Source of the DNA: a virus
Taxonomy: Duplodnaviria > Caudoviricetes
Length of the DNA: 64,000 nt
Virus record (IMG/VR): IMGVR_UViG_3300026549_000064
Coordinates: 1-64,000 of that record
Direction: 5' to 3' (one strand)
In this document: in pieces, positions 2,360 through 61,914 of the stretch
Position numbering within the stretch: the first letter of the stretch is position 1
Layout: each line of letters opens with the position of its first letter
Notes under the pieces: generated by a model
The model's input: only the letters and a program-made list of their open reading frames with translations
Told to the model about the DNA's origin: nothing
Databases searched by the model: none
Made by a program: the position numbers and the translations under genes

Positions 2360-4828
2360 TTATGAAGTATGCTCTCGTGCTTTAGCACCTTCTTCCGAAG
2401 ATACCCATCCGTAAAGATCACTAAACAGAATAATGTCTTTATCAGGATTACCTCCAGTGACTATACCGAGTGAGCGGAGTATCATGTACAGAGGACGTGT
2501 ACGTTTGTACACCATATCCCTAATACGCATCGCCGCTCTCAATTCAGCTGGTACCTTTTCAAGGGTGCTGTTGATAGGAACGAGGTTAACACTTTTCTTC
2601 TTAGATATTGAGGTAACGAATAAATCCAACTGACCGGCTATAGCCTCGGACATCTTAACCAGTTTTTCGTGGTAAGATTTACTAGTCATAAGTTTATAGT
2701 CGACATCGACTACATAAGCTTTAGTTGGTATCAAGATAGAACCATACTTCGCCGAATATACCTGCTGCCAGAATTTGTATCCGAAATAAATACTCCTATC
2801 GGCATCTGCATATTCTTCAGCTGTACGTATCGATTCAACTTCCAGAAACTCCGTATTGCCGCTGGTGAGACTATCGTACACCATACGTTCATATCGAAGT
2901 ACTGCAAGTATCTTCTCAGTCGGATCTATTTCGCCGTTATTAGTTACATCATACAACGTAGACTCAATAAACCAAGTTACATAGTTCGTTGTTGCTGTAC
3001 TAAAATTACTACCACGCAGACCAACTCCCTTGATGTCCAATCTAGGCTTAGCATACACTACGCCTTCCTGTATCTTCAGTAGGCTACAATAGTGCTTTTT
3101 TGCTGACGTGGTTATAACTACCGGCATCATGAATTCATTCTTCATAGACATCGTCAGTAAGTCTTTACCCACGGCATTGAAAGTTTCGCTAACCCTGTAC
3201 TGCAGATAAATCGTGGCTTTGGTTAAGAAATATACCATCAAAGCATTCATACTGTAAGCTCTTCTGGTAAACTTCAGATCACCGTTAAACCACTTCACCC
3301 AGGATTTGGTAGTAAAAATAATACTATCCGTATCGCTCAAGCCAATAGCTTTACGGAACATGAACTTATGCTCATCGACATAGCCAATACTTACCTTGTG
3401 ATTCATAAACACATCGAAAGCAAACTCAACTTGCTTAAGTTTAGATTCCATATGTTCAGCTATCGCCAGGAATTTACAAACTATATCAGGATGCGCTTCT
3501 GGTACGCCTTGCTCAGGCTGTGGGTCAAGACAGTCATAAATACTGATATTGTTGCCTTTTTTGTTTTTCGGTAGCCAGTCGTTATACGCAGTACTGATGA
3601 CTGATATCAAATCACCATCTACGTTCTTGATATCCTTAGGGTTTCGTTGTTTTGTGTAATCAACATTAGCATCGCTAAGGATATCCTCCATCCACGGCCT
3701 CCAGAACGTATCGTTAGTCATGACTACGTTCTTGAAGTTGCTCATATAAAAAATAAATGCAAGCCGTGCTGGAGTGCAACGTACCAAAAATTTATGTACC
3801 GGACTCAAATCTTTCTCAAAGCAATACTGCTTGAGATTATCCATCAGGAATTTTTCAACTTCATCAGCACTAGGCAGATGTAACGAAACACTTTCGCAAG
3901 CTTTCAGGACTGTCGCATCATCAGGGCCTAGCCGCACGCAAGTTACCAAAAAATTCAACAGCTGCTCAACGGTTCTGAAGTAAAAATTACTCTCCAGAAA
4001 TCTCTCGCTGTTAGCGTAAGCATTCATGATAAAAAATCTTGAAATGCTCGTAATACTGTTATAATTCGCTGGACTGCTCAGGAAGTTACCGTTACAGCCC
4101 ATACTGCCGCTGGTTGAGTTCATGTTGATTTTGATGGTGGCCTGCTGATTGTTATAAATCTTAGCTTTAGCCATATCACCAAGCTTACGGTATTTCAACA
4201 TGAGTTTCTTGCGTTCACTACGACGAGCTTTATCGTTGATAATTTTATTCGTCAGGAATGCTACATCGTTGTTCGATGTTTCATAGATGCTTCCAGCTGG
4301 ACTAATAATCTTAGTTCGGTAGTCATTACTGAAACCAAGCATATCAACTTCTGGAAATTCAACCAAATTACCGTACGATAGTTTTTTACTCCTCGGGTTA
4401 TTCGGATCTACGGCTTTGACAACTTTGACAGTTGGCCAAATCGATTTAGGACTAGGAGCCTCAACCCGATAGTTTTGAAGTATTCGTAAAAGTTCACCGA
4501 CCGGTAATTCGTTAACCTGAACTTCAGTGGCATTGATAAAATCAAACTTATCAGCCTCAGATTTGAAAACTCTTTCTTCGACCATCTTCGGAATAACTTC
4601 GGTCTTAACCAGCTCCCGATATTTTGCGATATCGGTATGCGCAGCAAGTAAATTATTCCAAAGTTTCTGAGCTCGCTGTTTAGTAAAATCCTGTACGAAT
4701 TTCTGAATAACTTCACGTGAAGCTTCCGGATGAATCGTTGCCAAATAAGTTATCATGTTCTCACGATACGAATCTAATACTTTTGGCCGTTCTATCGGTT
4801 CAGCATGCAAATCGAGATTTAATTTCAT
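2360..4828 (-). CDS. Family-B DNA polymerase, polymerase-domain subunit (phiKZ gp50-like, split enzyme)
   Basis: KINMNSTSG (region III), SDTDSII (region I), KKHY and IKGVG; no recognisable exonuclease or DxxSLYPS region. Confidence 0.88.
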   Translation of the reverse strand: MKLNLDLHAEPIERPKVLDSYRENMITYLATIHPEASREVIQKFVQDFTKQRAQKLWNNLLAAHTDIAKYRELVKTEVIPKMVEERVFKSEADKFDFINATEVQVNELPVGELLRILQNYRVEAPSPKSIWPTVKVVKAVDPNNPRSKKLSYGNLVEFPEVDMLGFSNDYRTKIISPAGSIYETSNNDVAFLTNKIINDKARRSERKKLMLKYRKLGDMAKAKIYNNQQATIKINMNSTSGSMGCNGNFLSSPANYNSITSISRFFIMNAYANSERFLESNFYFRTVEQLLNFLVTCVRLGPDDATVLKACESVSLHLPSADEVEKFLMDNLKQYCFEKDLSPVHKFLVRCTPARLAFIFYMSNFKNVVMTNDTFWRPWMEDILSDANVDYTKQRNPKDIKNVDGDLISVISTAYNDWLPKNKKGNNISIYDCLDPQPEQGVPEAHPDIVCKFLAIAEHMESKLKQVEFAFDVFMNHKVSIGYVDEHKFMFRKAIGLSDTDSIIFTTKSWVKWFNGDLKFTRRAYSMNALMVYFLTKATIYLQYRVSETFNAVGKDLLTMSMKNEFMMPVVITTSAKKHYCSLLKIQEGVVYAKPRLDIKGVGLRGSNFSTATTNYVTWFIESTLYDVTNNGEIDPTEKILAVLRYERMVYDSLTSGNTEFLEVESIRTAEEYADADRSIYFGYKFWQQVYSAKYGSILIPTKAYVVDVDYKLMTSKSYHEKLVKMSEAIAGQLDLFVTSISKKKSVNLVPINSTLEKVPAELRAAMRIRDMVYKRTRPLYMILRSLGIVTGGNPDKDIILFSDLYGWVSSEEGAKAREHTS

Positions 4829-23815: not shown

Positions 23816-23825
23816 ATGATATATA
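23816..23825 (-). promoter_or_regulatory. Putative early promoter variant TATATATCAT
   Basis: Same variant at 33358, 39360 and 62743. Confidence 0.65.
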
Positions 23826-33448: not shown

Positions 33449-34354
33449 TTAGTATTTCTTGCAAAGTTCGAATAAATCACGGATAGGTTTGTACTTATCG
33501 TTGTTAAGTACATCTTCTAGATTGGTTACTTTATTTGATTTAGTTTTCTTATCCGTTCCTGCAGCACTGATATATGCCTGATATCGTTTTTTATCATTTC
33601 TCAGCCATGCTTTCTTGTACTTTTTCAGAGCTAGGATGGGAACTTTAGCATAGTCAATAGAGTTATACTCCTTATCAGTTATGTGGTGCTCTACGATATC
33701 GAGTTTCTTACGCAGGCTAACACAAATTTTACGATATTCGGAGACTCTCATTTTCTGCTTGTTGCTATTGATCCAGTCAATGAATTCTTTAGCAATAGCT
33801 CTAGTACGACTCGATGAAGTATTGATACTAGGCAACCATTTTCCCAGTAGTGACGGTTGCTCACTTTTCAAATCATTTTGCATAACGTTGTATGCGTAGT
33901 TGTAAAGAAAATCGATCAGTACTTTAGCCCGATACGCATTAGCGGTATCTTCCTGCATGTCACAAAAATCATTAGCTGCTGCAACTAATTCAAAGATATC
34001 GTCATAACGACCATATCGGTTAATTAATGTAGCAACTAATTTGTTAACAAGATATTTAGAAAAATAATAACCATTGTGGCAAAGTACTTTAGCGAGATAG
34101 TAAATATAAATGAAATAAAACATCTCTCGACTGCCACAACCACCAGCCCGATCTCTCATGTAAGCTAAGATGATGGCTACCTTAATGTAGCCTTCATCAT
34201 CTTCGGAGTCTGAGTCACAAATGTTATCGATACGTGCAAAAGTGCTGCTTGCTGTGCAGAGCCATCTTGACTGACGTACTTCCTCAAATAAATTCTGTAA
34301 AGATTCAGTAACTGACTCCTGCTTAATTTTCTCAAGTATATCATTCTGCGGCAT
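33449..34354 (-). CDS. DUF2828/TROVE-like helical domain lacking the C-terminal vWA domain
   Basis: MRDRAGGCGSREMF, YGRYDDI, LGKWLPS, YRK...LRKKLDIVE, IDYAKVP..A..KY.KAW.RND..RY match the recalled family pattern. Confidence 0.7.
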   Translation of the reverse strand: MPQNDILEKIKQESVTESLQNLFEEVRQSRWLCTASSTFARIDNICDSDSEDDEGYIKVAIILAYMRDRAGGCGSREMFYFIYIYYLAKVLCHNGYYFSKYLVNKLVATLINRYGRYDDIFELVAAANDFCDMQEDTANAYRAKVLIDFLYNYAYNVMQNDLKSEQPSLLGKWLPSINTSSSRTRAIAKEFIDWINSNKQKMRVSEYRKICVSLRKKLDIVEHHITDKEYNSIDYAKVPILALKKYKKAWLRNDKKRYQAYISAAGTDKKTKSNKVTNLEDVLNNDKYKPIRDLFELCKKY

Positions 34355-36124: not shown

Positions 36125-36138
36125 TTTGGAGTTTGCAC

Positions 36139-39078
36139 ATGTTTGATGATAAATCGTTACTTATCAGTACTTTAAGAAATCCAGCTAACATAGCAGCTAA
36201 AGTTCTCAATGAGATTGAGAACAGGCTCAATGGTAAGATTACAATAGCTGATCCTAATGCTCCATTCTGTCATTTACTTGAGTTTGGATCAAGTATAGCT
36301 TCGCAGGTTATTAACGCTATGGATACAAAGTTTCCGTTACTTTATCCTAAGCGTGCTGAGTCCATGGAAGATTTGTATGCACATATGTCAGATTTCGATT
36401 ACTTAAGACTATACAGCACACCTGCTAGAAGTGCTATTCGTTTATATTTACCTAAGAAGTTTTTACTAGACAGTGCGTTAGATTATAACGAAAATTATAA
36501 AAAGCTAGTTATACCAAGTGATACTACATTCTTAGTAGCTAAGTACAATTTTGGTATTTATTATCCGATCGAGATATTGATCAATAACTATACTGGTTCA
36601 TTTACAGTAGCTTATGACACAACCGAGCCTAACCCGTTACATGTTTTGTCTAAAAATGTTATTGACAAATATGAACTTCAGTACATGGGCGTAGATTATT
36701 TGATTCTTGATATACCAGTATACCAGTTTAGTAAATCTACTATTATCGAAACTATAGTAGCTACTACTGGATTCGTTAAGAGTCTTAATTATAATGATAA
36801 ATTCTATGCACTTCGGATTTTTAATTATAAGAATGGTAGGTATACTGAACTAGCACAGACACAGAGCAAAGTTGTTTACGACGCAACTGTACCTACAGTC
36901 TATTTTCAGGTACAATCTGATAAAAATAAACTCATACTAACAGTACCTCAGGTTTATTTCGATAACGGTATGATGGGAAGTAAACTTCTGATAGAGGTGT
37001 ATACTACTGTTGGTAAACTAGATATCGATGTATCAAATATCAACGATACTGATATTGGTGTTACTTATGATAACAATGCGCGTACCGACAGTACGTATAC
37101 AAATATTTTCAAGAATATGCCGTATGATACGATCATACAGCTTAGTGGTGATCGTATCACCGGCGGCTCTAATGCCATTAGTGTTGATACGCTACGTAAG
37201 CGTGTAGTTCAGGATACGTTGTATGATAGAGTCCCTATATCTGAGGCTGATCTTGATGTTATGCTTGAAGATAATGGATTCTATGTTCATAAATCTTTAG
37301 ATAACGTTACCGATCGTATTTATTACGCCTACAAAGTTATAAGAGATGGTACTGGATCGATAGTTCCGTCTACTACAGTACCACTTAAACTTTTAAGTTC
37401 TTACGTTACGGATGGCAAACATTCTACATTGGTAAATTGTACGGCTGATACGTCGTTAACCATACTTCCCGCTACTATCTACAAATATGATCAAGACGCT
37501 AATTGCGCTACTCCGTTAGAAGATGATGAGCTCAACGCTCTTGTGTCAATGGATAAGGGTGCTTTAGCTAATACTTTGAATACAGCCGGCTACCTTAAAA
37601 CCCCGTATCATGTGAGAGTATCATTATCCGGTGAATATCCTAGGGCTGATACGTTTAACTTATCAACGCCGTCAGTAGATAAAGTCATCTTTGTGGAAGA
37701 CAATTACGAGACTACTTATAAGTTAGTTTCGTATGGGGCTACCATTAACCACGATACTGTAGGCTACTATGAAGTATATCTTACTGTATCCGGATCGGAT
37801 GACGTGATTAGCCTCTCGACTGATGATATTCTTCTGTACGTGATGGTTAAATCCGAAGATAAATGGGTGGGTACTACTTGCGAATATGTTTCATTCGATG
37901 CAAGTACCAAGATGTACATCTATAAGTTTATTATACCTACAACGTATCATCTCACTCTGGATAACAAAATAGGTATTACCTATACATCAGACAACGACGA
38001 TTATAAGAATTATGAATATCTTATCGATCTTGTATCTGATTTCCATGTAGTTTACATGGTAGCAAGGACAGCAGTAACTGGTATTTCTGAACCGTCGGAT
38101 ACAATAGTAACTGGAGTACCTGATCAGTATAAGCAGATGTATATTGGCTTATCTAGGCAGTATTTCACTATCACTTTAGGTAAGAATATCAATAACGTTA
38201 TTTACAACAATGTTGAAGTTACCTTAGGTACTAACACTTATGCTAGATATGAGACCAATATCCCGGCCAAGTATACTGAAGATGTTTACGAGCATGATGA
38301 AAATGGCTACATTAAAACATTTACCGATGTAAAAGGTAATATGTATACCAAGAAGATACATGAGGTTGGTGAACCTATTACTGACAGTAATGGTAAAATT
38401 AGATATGAGCATATGACCGGCGATATTATTCACAATGCAGCTGGCGATCCTGTGCTTGTGTCTGAAGGTTCGGATACCTATTTTGTTACAATGATGTTTA
38501 TTGACGCTAAGATGTTCTTCTCGGATAGACAGGCCGAATTGGATTTTCAGAATAATATCTATTCAACGCTTAATTCGTATTTTGATGTTATTACATCCAT
38601 GCAGGATCAGTTACTTGAGCGTACTAAACTTTACTTTAGGTGCGTTAAGTCTATCGGTACTGCTAATGTTAACATCGGCGATGGAGCGGTCAGTAAACAA
38701 AATATCGAGCTTAGCTTCCGTATTGTTTGCTATGTTCCGTCTTATGTTAAGCAGAATGAAACTATACAGAAACAAATTACTGAGATGCTTTGTACCTTTA
38801 TCGAAGAGGCTATTGAGAGTAAGACAATTTCAATGCTTGATATTTTCGAGAAGGTTAAGGAGCGTGTCAGTGACTATGTAGATCATTTTGATTTGCTTGG
38901 TATTAACGATAATGTTGCTCTGCAGACTTTTGTGGTAACAGATGATGATAGTCAGCCGTCTATTCGTAGACAGCTTGTTCTTACTGAGGATAACATCCTT
39001 TCGCTGCGTAAACAGGTTGATGTAACTTATGTTACTCTTAATCCGAATACGTTAGCGTCAAGTACATATTCTTCTTAA
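36139..39078 (+). CDS. Probable baseplate wedge protein (recalled as phiKZ gp87-like)
   Basis: ~980 aa; N-terminal DPNAPFCHLLE, then ITGGSN..SVDTLR (gp6/J-like); ATG 36139 has SD GGAG. Confidence 0.6.
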   Translation: MFDDKSLLISTLRNPANIAAKVLNEIENRLNGKITIADPNAPFCHLLEFGSSIASQVINAMDTKFPLLYPKRAESMEDLYAHMSDFDYLRLYSTPARSAIRLYLPKKFLLDSALDYNENYKKLVIPSDTTFLVAKYNFGIYYPIEILINNYTGSFTVAYDTTEPNPLHVLSKNVIDKYELQYMGVDYLILDIPVYQFSKSTIIETIVATTGFVKSLNYNDKFYALRIFNYKNGRYTELAQTQSKVVYDATVPTVYFQVQSDKNKLILTVPQVYFDNGMMGSKLLIEVYTTVGKLDIDVSNINDTDIGVTYDNNARTDSTYTNIFKNMPYDTIIQLSGDRITGGSNAISVDTLRKRVVQDTLYDRVPISEADLDVMLEDNGFYVHKSLDNVTDRIYYAYKVIRDGTGSIVPSTTVPLKLLSSYVTDGKHSTLVNCTADTSLTILPATIYKYDQDANCATPLEDDELNALVSMDKGALANTLNTAGYLKTPYHVRVSLSGEYPRADTFNLSTPSVDKVIFVEDNYETTYKLVSYGATINHDTVGYYEVYLTVSGSDDVISLSTDDILLYVMVKSEDKWVGTTCEYVSFDASTKMYIYKFIIPTTYHLTLDNKIGITYTSDNDDYKNYEYLIDLVSDFHVVYMVARTAVTGISEPSDTIVTGVPDQYKQMYIGLSRQYFTITLGKNINNVIYNNVEVTLGTNTYARYETNIPAKYTEDVYEHDENGYIKTFTDVKGNMYTKKIHEVGEPITDSNGKIRYEHMTGDIIHNAAGDPVLVSEGSDTYFVTMMFIDAKMFFSDRQAELDFQNNIYSTLNSYFDVITSMQDQLLERTKLYFRCVKSIGTANVNIGDGAVSKQNIELSFRIVCYVPSYVKQNETIQKQITEMLCTFIEEAIESKTISMLDIFEKVKERVSDYVDHFDLLGINDNVALQTFVVTDDDSQPSIRRQLVLTEDNILSLRKQVDVTYVTLNPNTLASSTYSS

Positions 39079-39094
39079 AAAATAAAAGTTAGAT

Positions 39095-39126
39095 AGAAGC
39101 AGTACTCCCTAGGGAGTACTGCTTCT
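39095..39126. terminator. 32-bp perfect palindrome, probably a bidirectional terminator
   Basis: agaagcagtactccct|agggagtactgcttct. Confidence 0.75.
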
Positions 39127-39137
39127 TTATAGTTTTG

Positions 39138-39358
39138 AAAAAAAAATAGAGGATATTGCTACCCCCTATTCCCTGACGTGCAGATTTCTCTATACGTCGT
39201 TGATAGCTATGCATAGCCTGGCTGGGAACTGATAGCTAAACTATCTTCATCCGCCGTTGGCCGTAGCAGTGGCTATCTATAAGAGAACCGCTTCTGCAGT
39301 CGGGCATGCTCGTTTGGCCTCGTCCGGCTTTTTAGCATTCAGCTGGCGTTCTCATCTT
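39138..39358 (-). ncRNA. Candidate small RNA with its own early promoter and intrinsic terminator
   Basis: TATATATCAT at 39360-39369; only a 7-codon ORF; several helices; GCAA-loop terminator plus T9 at 39138-39170. Confidence 0.6.
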
Positions 39359-39395
39359 AATGATATATATCTGATTATATTTGATAGACGTCGAC

Positions 39396-41042
39396 TTAGA
39401 AAATAATATCATTGATAGCCTGAATAGCCATCTTAGTAGCTACAGTGCTATCTACCATTTTCAAATCTTCTTCATCCACACCATCGGCTTCATGCTGATT
39501 CATAACTTCGGCAGCAGCTTCACTAAACATACGGTTGATGCTTTTCAGTTTGCTGTTAGGATATTTGATATCGATGATGAAGTCATAGAGCAAACCTTGC
39601 AGATTTTGATCAGAGTTAGCTTGCATATTGTGCAGAAGTCTTTGCACAGTAGAGGTATCATGACCTCTGACAAAATCGGTTCTAGTTAGCCCTTTAGGAA
39701 TGTAGCTATCGTCAAGCGATTCTAGATAAGCGTGAAGTGTCTGCTCAGTAGCTATCTGCTTGGCTTTATTTTGATAGCGAACCATGTTCGCTTGCATTTC
39801 TAATTGTTTGGCTCTAACTATCTCAGCGGCTCTATCTTTGTAGAGACGAATGTCGGATGCTTTGATACCGAGAGTGGGAATACTGTCATCGTTACTCTTG
39901 CAGAATCCATCGTAATAAACATTCATAGCCGCTTCAGTAACAGGGTTACCTTCTTCAGCTTCTTTCTCTTCGACATCAGGGTTGACTACGCCGCTATCCA
40001 TGAGAATGGTGTTATTCTCGTAAAGCTTTTTGCGTAACGAAGCCATAGCGTAAGCACCGATTTCAAAATTCATAAGAACTGTATCCATATTCTTATGCAG
40101 CTTGTTGAAATCGTTATCGTTTACGTTGAGTTCTGTTTTCTTAAAAGCTTTGAGAATAGGAAGATATTTTCTTACTCCTTGAGTAAAACTTAAGATAGAT
40201 TTACCGTATCTTCTATTCTTTAGATCTTTAAGATAAAGCTTGTACATGAAGTTATGCATGTGATAATTACTGGTGATAACTTTGTACATTTCAGCGGTTG
40301 CTTCTTTTATTTCTTCCTCTTGATCTTCCGGGATAGAAATGTTCTCGGCTACACGATTTTGTACATCGTTAGCGGTTTCTTTATCCAGATCAATATCCTC
40401 TTCATTGTTATTGACACTATCTCCAACGGCAATAGCATCGTCAACAGTGAGCGTAGGAGTCATCTTGGTGTAATCTTTAATATTATTCTTGACAATCTCT
40501 GCACCACCAAACCTATTGAGTAGCGCATCCCACTTAACTCGGGTTAAGCTGAGTTCTTTTTTCTGCTGCTTATCGTTAGGTTTTGCATTCTTGTTTTTCT
40601 TATCCGGAGTATTCTCAGCTTCGGTGCTATTCTGATTCCGGATAACCTGTTCAGCTTTGTTATCTATTTTCTTCTCTACGTGATTAGCTTCTTTAGCGAT
40701 TTCACCGCTTAGCGTAGAAAACGCTGTACAGATGTTTCCGCCGATAGCTCTGGTTACTTCATTAACTACCTTAAAGCAAGGCTGTAAATTAGTACTCTTC
40801 TTAGCGCGATTGTAAGCATCGGTTACACGCTTAACGATAAGAGCAGATCTCTTTCGGCTATCAGTAAAGCCAGCTAAATCTTTATCGCTAAGATTGAGAT
40901 TACGTAAAGTACTGTTGACAATTACCTCAAGAGCTGTTTTCAACTGAGGATCGTTGGTTTTAACTTGAGTGTCGCTGAGCTTTTCGATGTCGTTACTGAG
41001 CATCTCGCCATAGACGCCGCTATCGATTTCTTCTATGTTCAT
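39396..41042 (-). CDS. Probable virion protein
   Basis: 548-aa helical ORF in the structural region. Confidence 0.6.
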   Translation of the reverse strand: MNIEEIDSGVYGEMLSNDIEKLSDTQVKTNDPQLKTALEVIVNSTLRNLNLSDKDLAGFTDSRKRSALIVKRVTDAYNRAKKSTNLQPCFKVVNEVTRAIGGNICTAFSTLSGEIAKEANHVEKKIDNKAEQVIRNQNSTEAENTPDKKNKNAKPNDKQQKKELSLTRVKWDALLNRFGGAEIVKNNIKDYTKMTPTLTVDDAIAVGDSVNNNEEDIDLDKETANDVQNRVAENISIPEDQEEEIKEATAEMYKVITSNYHMHNFMYKLYLKDLKNRRYGKSILSFTQGVRKYLPILKAFKKTELNVNDNDFNKLHKNMDTVLMNFEIGAYAMASLRKKLYENNTILMDSGVVNPDVEEKEAEEGNPVTEAAMNVYYDGFCKSNDDSIPTLGIKASDIRLYKDRAAEIVRAKQLEMQANMVRYQNKAKQIATEQTLHAYLESLDDSYIPKGLTRTDFVRGHDTSTVQRLLHNMQANSDQNLQGLLYDFIIDIKYPNSKLKSINRMFSEAAAEVMNQHEADGVDEEDLKMVDSTVATKMAIQAINDIIF

Positions 41043-59677: not shown

Positions 59678-59790
59678 GATAATTACCTAATCTAAATTTG
59701 TTAAAAGCTTATAAATTGTGCGTCATCGAATGGCGCATGGTGTATTATTTATATATGATATAAATCATTAAACTTAAATGGGAGATGCTT

Positions 59791-61914
59791 ATGGCTAAGT
59801 TAGCACCGTTTAACATAACCATGATAGATCCAGACGAATACGTTCAGCGTAAGCAGTGTTTGCCCGTATCATCTAACGCAATGTATGAGTCGTCTACCGA
59901 AAGATTCCATCCAGATGGACTGTATTCTGAAGTTATATTTGGCCAGTTAGGATCAAGAGAAAGATTGATACGTCGTGGATTTATGTATCTTAGGACTACT
60001 CTTGTTTCGCCACATCTTTACCGGCAGATCATGACTCTCAAAGGGTTTTATAAAGATATTGCTGCTGGTAAGCAGTATGCTTACTTTGACCCTAAGTTAA
60101 AAGACTTCGTAAGAACGTCCAGAGATGATCCTGATTCAGATACAGGATACCAATTCTTTGTATCTAAATTAGATAAGATAGAGTTTCAAAAAACTAATTC
60201 AGCGCAGCGTAATGATAAAATTACCTTAATCAAAAAATATAAGGATCGTTTATTCATTACTAAATTTATTATTCTTCCAGCAGCTCTTCGTGACGTTAGA
60301 ATAAACAACGGCAGACCTGAATCAGAAAAAATTAACAAGTTATATCTTAATCTGTTAGCTCTTACTAAATCATTACCTGATTCTGGAGCAGATGATCCTA
60401 TTTTTGATCCTATTCGGTTTCAGATGCAGAATAAGCTTCAAGAGATTTACGAATACATTCGTAACATGATAGATGAGAAGCATGGTTTCGCTCAGGGAAG
60501 ATATGCTGCGAGAGACATTGTTTACGGATCGCGTAACGTTATAACCTCACCGTTGGTAACTGAAACTAAATCTCCTACAGCACCTGACGTGTTTAGTATA
60601 GACGAGGCTCTTATTCCTTTGTTTGAAGGATTAAAGGCATTAGTTCCAGTAATAGTTAATGTGATGACCACTAAGCTTTTAGCTACTGTATTTAGTGGTG
60701 ATCAGTCTCGTACAATTCCTCTTATAAATGCTAAGACGCTTAGACAAGAATATGTTGAGGTTGACGATAAAACCATTGAGAGATTTACTACGCCAGATGG
60801 AATAAACGATATCATTAATGATTTCCGTGATAATTCCATGCATTTTAAGCCGGTTACACTTAAACCAGCTAAGGCAGCTTTGGCTGATGGATATGCCGCT
60901 GATGAGTATTATCTCTTTATGATTTATGACGACGGTGATACTGTTTATCAGTTTAGAGACTTGGAAGAATTTAAGCAGGCTTACGCTAGAACAGATAGAT
61001 ATCGCGATGATAACCCGTATACACATGTGCTCGATAATTATCCGCCGGAAAATTATATAATTGAGGGTACTGGCGCTTTAAGAGCTCACGGCATGGACAT
61101 CGATCCTCAGGATCTCGATGTTATCATGAAGCCTGATATGTATCAGCATTTTCTTGAAGTAGCTAAAGCACAAAATGTTACTCCTGATGAATTTGGCGAT
61201 TATGAAATTCATGTAGATAATGTAGAAATTCACATGAAGAATAATTGTTATCAAATCAAGACTGATGCTGACTGGGAGAAACTTAAGAGCGAACAAGGTA
61301 TACAGATAGGGCAGCATTATTATATTAAGCCTGAAGTCATGTCAGCCAGATATAAAGCTATAGAAGCTAAAGGCGGTAGACTCAAGGATAAAAGAAAACT
61401 AGAGTTTTATAAGTCTATTATCTTTGATGAGTCTAAAGTTAGACCTATGACTTATATTGAGCTGATGTATATAGCTTGCTCGTCAGCGATTAAGGGTAAA
61501 CACTTCACTGTAACAAGATATCCTGTATTGAATATGTACAACATTTATCCAGTTAAGGGGCATCTCATATCAACTGAGCCAAGTAGAGTAGTGAAATATG
61601 TATTTGCTCTTAGACCTGAATTGAGTGTAACTTTAAGTTCGTATCCAATTATGGGAGCGGTATCTAAACAATCGTTGTCAGTTCATCCTGCTACGTTGGG
61701 CCATTTGGATGCCGACCACGATGGCGATACCATGAGTTTACTTCCTATCTTGTCTGAAGATGCCAATAAAGAAGTGGCTGATTTCATGCAGTCAACTGCT
61801 TCTATACTGGATGAGAGTGGTAACTTAATTTGGGGATTGACAGCAGGTGGCCAGAGTGTGGTTGTTCCAGTAACTCTGTTCTTCTGTACTTATAGACCTA
61901 TAGAACAAAAATAA
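59791..61914 (+). CDS. Multisubunit RNA polymerase beta-prime N-terminal/catalytic fragment (virion RNAP, phiKZ gp180-like) with an inserted domain
   Basis: DGLYSEVIFG, IILPAALRD, GSRNVIT, TRYPVL, catalytic DADHDGD (61708-61728); ATG 59791 has SD GGAG. Confidence 0.92.
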   Translation: MAKLAPFNITMIDPDEYVQRKQCLPVSSNAMYESSTERFHPDGLYSEVIFGQLGSRERLIRRGFMYLRTTLVSPHLYRQIMTLKGFYKDIAAGKQYAYFDPKLKDFVRTSRDDPDSDTGYQFFVSKLDKIEFQKTNSAQRNDKITLIKKYKDRLFITKFIILPAALRDVRINNGRPESEKINKLYLNLLALTKSLPDSGADDPIFDPIRFQMQNKLQEIYEYIRNMIDEKHGFAQGRYAARDIVYGSRNVITSPLVTETKSPTAPDVFSIDEALIPLFEGLKALVPVIVNVMTTKLLATVFSGDQSRTIPLINAKTLRQEYVEVDDKTIERFTTPDGINDIINDFRDNSMHFKPVTLKPAKAALADGYAADEYYLFMIYDDGDTVYQFRDLEEFKQAYARTDRYRDDNPYTHVLDNYPPENYIIEGTGALRAHGMDIDPQDLDVIMKPDMYQHFLEVAKAQNVTPDEFGDYEIHVDNVEIHMKNNCYQIKTDADWEKLKSEQGIQIGQHYYIKPEVMSARYKAIEAKGGRLKDKRKLEFYKSIIFDESKVRPMTYIELMYIACSSAIKGKHFTVTRYPVLNMYNIYPVKGHLISTEPSRVVKYVFALRPELSVTLSSYPIMGAVSKQSLSVHPATLGHLDADHDGDTMSLLPILSEDANKEVADFMQSTASILDESGNLIWGLTAGGQSVVVPVTLFFCTYRPIEQK

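Follow-up and report, generated by a model that had tools for sequence, protein, structure and literature searches.

A putative clade-restricted structured RNA carried as an accessory module by phiKZ-like jumbo phages of gut and rumen

The small RNAs of the jumbo phages 201phi2-1 and phiKZ, resolved by ONT-cappable-seq, are units of <250 bp with a phage promoter and an intrinsic terminator, and some of them are conserved in position by virion genes (PMC11512511). The RNA module described here resembled them as a short unit bounded by promoter and terminator in a phiKZ-like genome. However, it had no sequence or CM similarity to those sRNAs, it lay in a 3'UTR position whereas they are mostly 5'UTR-derived, and it was accessory whereas they are conserved across genera. 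The Type I 3'UTR-nested sRNAs of bacteria (DapZ, MicL) combine an internal promoter of their own with the terminator of the mRNA; they are Hfq-dependent, act by seed pairing and measure about 80-300 nt. At the sequence level the module had this architecture, with its own promoter at or near the end of a coding sequence and a terminator common to the upstream gene. It differed from the DapZ/MicL type in being built of several domains that include a GNRA loop and a conserved internal loop, and in having a promoter of the phage RNAP type.

Mobile elements of a similar build are the PeSL (promoter-early stem-loop) cassettes of T4-type phages, reportedly described by Arbiol et al. in 2010, which are said to be repeated many times per genome and to flank small ORFs. 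Both are early-type promoter and terminator/stem-loop modules shuffled by recombination in plastic regions, but the present cassette was single-copy, measured about 236 nt, and carried as its cargo a structured RNA whose helices covary. Bacterial and phage Y RNAs are the partners of Ro60/Rsr (TROVE) proteins, and their 5' and 3' ends form the Ro-binding stem. They are likewise structured ncRNAs, of 100-200 nt, and the genome studied here encoded a TROVE-like/DUF2828 protein 5 kb away from the module; in contrast to Y RNAs, however, the RNA lacked both the long Ro-binding end stem and any tRNA-like module, and it did not match Rfam Y_RNA (E <=10). Phage RNAs also serve in counter-defence as pseudo-ToxI antitoxin mimics and RNA anti-CRISPRs (Racr), which are arrays or single units mimicking a host repeat. 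Those non-coding, accessory phage RNAs are decoys for host defence proteins. The present RNA was also non-coding and accessory, but it was without tandem repeats, and its hairpin sequences varied between types where a repeat mimic would need constancy.

Phage ncRNAs are poorly charted, above all those of jumbo phages, which run their own transcription machinery. The module is a cassette present once, its ends are defined, and its two diverged natural alleles keep the same predicted fold. Natural knock-outs with 97%-identical flanks, together with signs of its recent spread, offer ready comparisons for an accessory phage RNA. By all appearances it represents a new ncRNA family, restricted to one clade and of a general kind already known; for now it adds one uncatalogued RNA family and not a new principle.

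Genomic setting, promoter and terminators

The stretch of DNA analysed, called the window below, comprised the initial 64 kb of a contig from IMG/VR that is 85 kb long and has an estimated completeness of 32%. Its source is a distant phiKZ-like jumbo phage of gut or rumen, and the assemblies that yielded its relatives were from gut and apparently rumen. A 981-aa ORF (36133-39078, plus strand) matched the virion proteins of 290 phiKZ-like phages over the full length at about 26% identity, and the matched proteins are annotated as homologues of phiKZ gp87 and 201phi2-1 gp149. A convergent 548-aa gene (39396-41042, minus strand; stop codon at 39396-39398) occupied the position of phiKZ gp86, as judged from the ORF list and the gene order in cultured relatives. 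Its product had no Pfam or PHROG match and no tblastn match in 50,697 phage records, and an ESM Atlas look-up was uninformative. The stop codon of the 548-aa ORF and the 981-aa gene were 317 nt apart, and the RNA module sat in this gap.

The window also encoded a multisubunit RNA-polymerase beta-type subunit (59785-61914) and 12-13 tRNAs at 13.7-16.3 kb. In this tRNA cluster (13757-16319) Rfam called 13 genes and ARAGORN 12, the one at 14544-14626 being called by Rfam only (43 bits); a tRNA-Ser at 14726-14816 was called with the unusual anticodon ACT. The gene for the TROVE-like protein (DUF2828, phrog_850 'RNA-binding protein') lay at 33449-34354 on the minus strand. This protein measured 301 aa in the window and in one relative (L222), and 534-591 aa with a DUF7788 in L224 and the L002 contig; the window gene looks like a C-terminally truncated or split copy.

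Every sequence element that a first-pass annotation had listed for 39138-39369 was present and in place on the minus strand. The spacer and promoter-like core (39360-39395) begin after the 548-aa stop codon, with TATATATCAT at 39360-39369. They are followed by a 5' leader, UAAGAU, and the variable 5' domain P1 (39283-39359, by predicted folds), whose closing helix pairs GAGAAC (39348-39353) with GUUCUC (39283-39288) and in the centroid fold encloses AUGCU/AGCAU and GCC/GGC. The conserved 3' domain P2 (39199-39277) was predicted to form a long irregular hairpin made of GAUAG/CUAUC, inner helices, an internal loop and an apical hairpin. The P2 base, GAUAGC/GCUAUC (39271-39277 with 39199-39207), encloses the apical hairpin GAUAG-UUUA-GCUAUC (39231-39245), and the internal loop sets AUGAAG (39245-39250) against CAGUUCYC (39220-39231), a loop sequence identical in the two alleles described below (W-type and L3-type). 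A conserved AAC linker precedes P3, a GACGU/ACGUC hairpin with a GAAA tetraloop (39175-39198), after which a conserved (A/G)GGGAA leads into the terminator T1 (39138-39174 in all, by fold). The fold of the window RNA was more stable than expected from shuffles (z = -3.5), with 1 of 200 shuffles as good, and the homologue at locus L003 gave z = -3.8. A second copy was absent from the 85-kb record.

The promoter-like core lies 26 nt past the 548-aa stop codon. In the window it takes the form TATATATCAT-TAAG-ATG, a variant that recurred at 23823, 33365 and 62750 ahead of three other genes; the core of the L3-type homologues was TATATATTAC-TAAAGTG. The published early-promoter consensus is TATATTAC for phiKZ and TATATTAC-DWHD-GTG for 201phi2-1 (PMC7058600, table 2), and the phiKZ early motif is read by the virion RNAP (PMC8244752). 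The L3-type core, split as TATATATTAC-TAAA-GTG, was an exact fit to this phiKZ/201phi2-1 early consensus, and the window copy was a variant of it. Within the window, ATATATYAY-N4-GTG occurred 5 times versus 0.1 expected, and TATATTAC occurred 14 times versus 5 expected, mostly just upstream of genes. Among the L3-type variants, 1 of 17 sites was variable in the core compared with 14 of 27 in the upstream spacer. These motifs argue for a promoter of the phage's own TATAT(T/C)A(C/T) class, phiKZ-early-like in type. To that extent the proposal of an early promoter stood; the 'early' timing would follow by analogy of motif, and the transcription start of the RNA was likewise placed by motifs.

Two subclasses of promoter-like motif, ATATATCAT and ATATATTAC, were seen in the window. 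One set lay at 23823, 33365, 39367 and 62750, all on the minus strand (the TCAT variant), and the other at 2167, 4933, 5039, 5091, 19371, 21172, 23252 and 62356. The subclasses could mark different temporal classes.

T1 (39138-39170, minus strand) folded as a hairpin of 11-15 bp with a GCAA loop and U9; a simple terminator scan reported only T2. The latter is a bidirectional 14-bp palindrome (39095-39126, both strands) that serves the convergent 981-aa gene, and it was kept in relatives with and without the RNA; the first-pass annotation had seen a separate palindromic terminator as insulating the RNA from that gene. T1 had been described as the RNA's own terminator. This description did not hold, because relatives without the RNA use T1 for the 548-aa gene: in L002 the T1 homologue stands directly after the stop codon of that gene. 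T1 is thus common to the RNA and the upstream gene. No terminator was found between the 548-aa stop codon and the RNA, so the RNA is expected as a 3'UTR of the mRNA as well, and it should be produced both from its own promoter and in this form. The view of the module as a stand-alone gene therefore kept its promoter-like core of the phage's class and lost its separation from the gene upstream. Downstream on the minus strand there was no gene, only the two terminators, beyond which runs the antisense strand of the 981-aa gene. A riboswitch or transcription attenuator was rejected, as no regulated gene followed on the same strand. A motif binding the anti-Shine-Dalgarno sequence was also rejected: the only candidate, AGAGGU/GGGGGU (by eye), is borne by the terminator and occurs in relatives without the RNA, so it is not specific to the RNA.

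Alleles, covariation and distribution

The locus was recovered from many assemblies through searches with the two flanking proteins. Besides the window itself, two loci carried a W-type allele: L222, with 5 differences over 272 nt, and L140, a truncated contig with 1 difference. An L3-type allele was present at the same locus in sister phages (L003, L101/L102, L224/L362 and L363-365), with its parts in the same order as in the window: promoter, P1 with GAGAA/UUCUC, linker hairpin, P2, CUAUCAAC, P3, GGGGAA and T1. The linker hairpin after P1 was an extra of the L3-type compared with the W-type window. The closing helix of P1 was kept in sequence in all variants, and the P1 interior was unalignable between W-type and L3-type. 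A CM (R1) built from four L3-type copies only matched the window RNA from end to end (46.8 bits, E ~4e-12), the sole match in the 85-kb record. It found no second copy on the L003 contig and no match on the 85.6-kb contig of a relative without the RNA.

Within the L3 group, the last ~125 nt had a single variable site, and variation was found in the spacer, P1 interior, linker and P2 5' strand. The conserved core thus appears to be the 3' half of the RNA. A third variant was seen in three independent samples (L363-L365; 4234-4439, minus strand). It had 46 differences from L003, which clustered in the P1 interior and P2 5' strand and left the 3' ~125 nt identical; this mosaic pattern suggests that the variant either diversified on one side only or exchanged sequence with an allele not yet sampled. 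With P1 enforced, the L363 5' domain was predicted at -5.4 versus -21 kcal/mol, and some P2 pairs were broken too. The predicted weakening would mean either that part of the structure is non-essential or that the L363 copy is decaying. At a contig end (L366, 4141-4322) only the 3' part of the RNA was found, preceded by a G-rich run beginning GAGGGAGGGGGGGG; it is most likely an assembly artefact.

Covariation was examined in a CM alignment of six copies, effectively about three independent types (W, L3 and L363). In this alignment, which leans towards structure because it is CM-fitted and in which covariation statistics are weak, canonical pairs filled 94.6% of the pair cells versus 33-41% with slid partners, and 15 base pairs were changed on both sides and still paired, values that none of 500 shuffles reached. 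Compensatory changes fell in helices 5-8, with three of the five pairs of the P2 apical hairpin doubly changed. In P3 (helix 9), 4 of 12 pairs were doubly changed between W-type and L3-type around an invariant GAAA loop. Between the window and L003, identity was 78% in unpaired aligned columns compared with 58% in paired ones, as would be expected of a functional structure, and the differences in the linker hairpin within the L3 group were switches from G-U to A-U. Since the G-U pairs of the helices (e.g. GGUGG/CUAUC) would be A-C on the other strand, the minus strand is taken as the transcript. A pseudoknot between GUUCYC and GGGAAY was possible in the W and L3 types and disrupted in L222; as it showed one-sided changes only, no claim is made for it.

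Together, these comparisons point to selection acting on the folded RNA; the module is conserved, and its fold is not taken to be due to chance. The first-pass annotation had called the element a structured, non-coding RNA, and the CM match, the compensatory changes, the fold stability (z = -3.5) and the lack of a conserved ORF bear this out. The annotation had staked the claim on conservation of the helices, and these were conserved, all 15 doubly changed pairs having kept their pairing.

A search of the window against Rfam 15 at gathering thresholds returned no non-tRNA match. At E up to 10 (38950-39550) and E up to 5 (L003 homologue), only sub-threshold matches were returned, to the terminator palindrome or as miRNA/snoRNA noise, so that the supposed novelty held against Rfam for either allele. 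The module had no blastn match in 50,697 phage records, and CM R1 had none on 201phi2-1 or Goslar. A 21-bit CM R1 match in Erwinia phage pEa_SNUABM_4 (35659-35823, L374) was judged spurious: P1 and P3 were unformed, and the match overlapped a terminator-like hairpin and the start of a CDS. Pattern scans with the conserved loop and linker motifs covered viral contigs, metagenome contigs and prokaryote genomes. After filtering (for metagenomes and prokaryotes, of the matches listed), two matches were real, one on the L003 contig already known and the other on L140, a new contig of the W-type; the others were put down to chance. The RNA was not found outside its narrow clade in the viral-contig scans, nor among the metagenome and prokaryote matches listed. 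Its carriers appear to be confined to a narrow, uncultured clade of phiKZ-like jumbo phages from gut and rumen. A large survey of candidate structured RNAs in IMG/VR set a minimum of 3 distinct regions, and the motifs that it reported measured at most 151 nt (PMC10690425). Because the RNA was found in two IMG/VR contigs only, it probably escaped that survey.

Accessory status and exchange in a cargo slot

The L002 and L003 loci were 97.4% identical in a 4.6 kb flank and differed by a clean indel of 236 nt that comprised exactly the spacer, the promoter and the RNA. There are viable relatives without the module; RNA-bearing contigs formed the large majority of the 85% group, and in every copy the module was found at this one locus only. 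Between the window and L222, a tract of 95-100% identity (38900-39400) stood in a background of ~78% and ended at the stop codon. Phages with flanks of 77-80% identity shared the W-type module at 98% identity or more; L140 had 1 difference with flanks at 77%. Since this near-identity extends over the spacer, which is unstructured, and into the 3' end of the adjacent gene, it is ascribed to recombination and not to purifying selection on the RNA, and it indicates that a recent recombination event carried the W-type module.

The space that separates the gp86-position gene from the gp87 homologue (39079-39395 in the window; L002, L095, L097 and L225-L233 in relatives) behaved as a cargo hot spot. 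In L095, whose 548-aa homologue is 58% identical to that of the window, the slot held only a bidirectional terminator. It held a 372-aa ORF in the 65% clade, a 360-aa ORF in L097, and in L233 two ORFs, a small one that has its own promoter and another of 219 aa. In the cultured phages 201phi2-1, Goslar and pEa_SNUABM_4 the slot was empty, at 42-62 nt. No known family matched the slot ORFs of the sister clades. The idea that the RNA is a remnant of the 372-aa or 360-aa slot genes was rejected, as tblastn and blastn found no similarity.

Proposed function and rival readings

On balance we think it probable that the module is a promoter-borne, accessory ncRNA cassette of ~215 nt that ends at T1, folds and is recognised by a protein. 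Transcription would start from the phage's own promoter, by analogy with the phiKZ early promoters read by the virion RNA polymerase, and would end at T1, borrowed from the 548-aa gene upstream; this sequence would also be made as the 3'UTR of the 548-aa mRNA. The RNA would consist of the variable P1, an optional linker hairpin and the conserved 3' core (P2, AAC linker and GAAA-capped P3), and would act as a folded molecule seen by a protein, whether as decoy, sponge or RNP component. Loops better conserved than stems, the lack of extended complementarity and the near-invariant 3' core all point to such a protein-recognised, folded RNA; the longest complementarity to the 85-kb fragment (~32% of the genome) was 12 nt, which is at chance level. 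As accessory cargo in the hot-spot slot, the RNA would be lost by clean deletion and exchanged by homologous recombination. A protein-binding early ncRNA carried as accessory cargo is accordingly our best guess at function, held with modest confidence, and a long-duplex antisense regulator is less likely. The sponge and anti-defence roles suggested earlier fit the behaviour of an accessory, recombining module.

A more specific proposal is that this cargo serves counter-defence or host takeover: made at the start of infection, it would bind and neutralise, or recruit, a host or phage protein, and would sweep by recombination between co-infecting jumbo phages, in the slot that sister clades fill with protein cargo. 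We put this forward tentatively, and in this full form it is rather improbable; a candidate partner would be the phage's TROVE-like DUF2828 RNA-binding protein.

Three known RNA classes were considered and rejected. Identity with a Y RNA was rejected in that P1 is a local 5' helix, the 3' end is a terminator, no Y_RNA/YrlA match was obtained, and a relative without the RNA (G001) keeps DUF2828. A ToxI-like array would need repeats of ~34-36 nt, and the one repeat that TRF reported, AT-rich and 10 nt long, belonged to the promoter, the RNA body having none; the suggestion of a ToxI-type RNA antitoxin mimic was dropped on this ground. A retron or DGR template RNA was rejected given no RVT_1 match and no second copy in the 85-kb record (~32% of the genome).

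The module might instead act in cis, as a 3'UTR element of the 548-aa mRNA that stabilises it against exonucleases or forms a termination or processing module, with no independent transcript. The terminator arrangement, with none ahead of the RNA and T1 serving the gene in RNA-less relatives, agrees with such a role, as does the confinement of the module to a single locus. However, the promoter core 26 nt past the stop is of a recurrent class and is kept while the spacer varies, the 548-aa gene works without the module in L002, L095 and all cultured relatives, and the conserved internal-loop and tetraloop sequences exceed what a stabilising hairpin needs. We consider a purely cis-acting element unlikely. 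To the same degree unlikely is a trans-acting, base-pairing sRNA whose near-invariant 3' strand, CAGUUCYCRGCC...CUAUCAAC, would be the seed for a host or phage mRNA. Such a seed would account for the one variable site in the 3' ~125 nt of the L3 group beside a masking 5' strand that varies, with 16 changes in the L363 masking strand, some of them pair-breaking, and 3'UTR-nested sRNAs with their own promoters are a known bacterial class (DapZ, MicL). Set against this, complementarity did not exceed 12 nt in the 85-kb phage fragment, the conserved strand is mostly paired in the predicted fold, and ~215 nt in several domains is large for an sRNA of the seed type.

Lower still in probability is a cassette without function, either a selfish or neutral promoter-hairpin unit of the PeSL kind or a decaying remnant carried along by recombination in a variable slot. 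Its presence or absence between 97%-identical phages, its carriage in a recombination tract, the partly destabilised L363 copy and the very narrow clade distribution would suit such a unit, but compensatory double changes in P2e and P3 and the better conservation of loops than stems speak for function, similarity to the slot protein genes was lacking, and RNA-bearing contigs predominate in the 85% group. Finally, a small protein or leaderless peptide from the (A/G)UG of UAAGAUGAGAAC is extremely improbable: all variants share the position of the start codon (MRT...), but the frame from it runs for 7, 35 and 9 codons in the three variants with no Shine-Dalgarno sequence, and substitutions track pairing, not codons.

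The 7-codon frame, MRTPAEC, had been given as the only ORF, which proved incorrect, as the RNA strand also has frames of 21-25 codons and the opposite strand has a frame of 49 codons; no ORF was conserved in the relatives' copies. A minor observation concerned the end of the upstream gene. The last codons of the 548-aa gene, CTATCAA(C/T)GAT (39400-39420), nearly repeat CTATCAAC(T)GA of the P2/P3 junction (39199-39212). This near-repeat was seen in both alleles (4590-4605 and 4817-4832 in L003), and it may be due to chance or be a trace of the module's origin.
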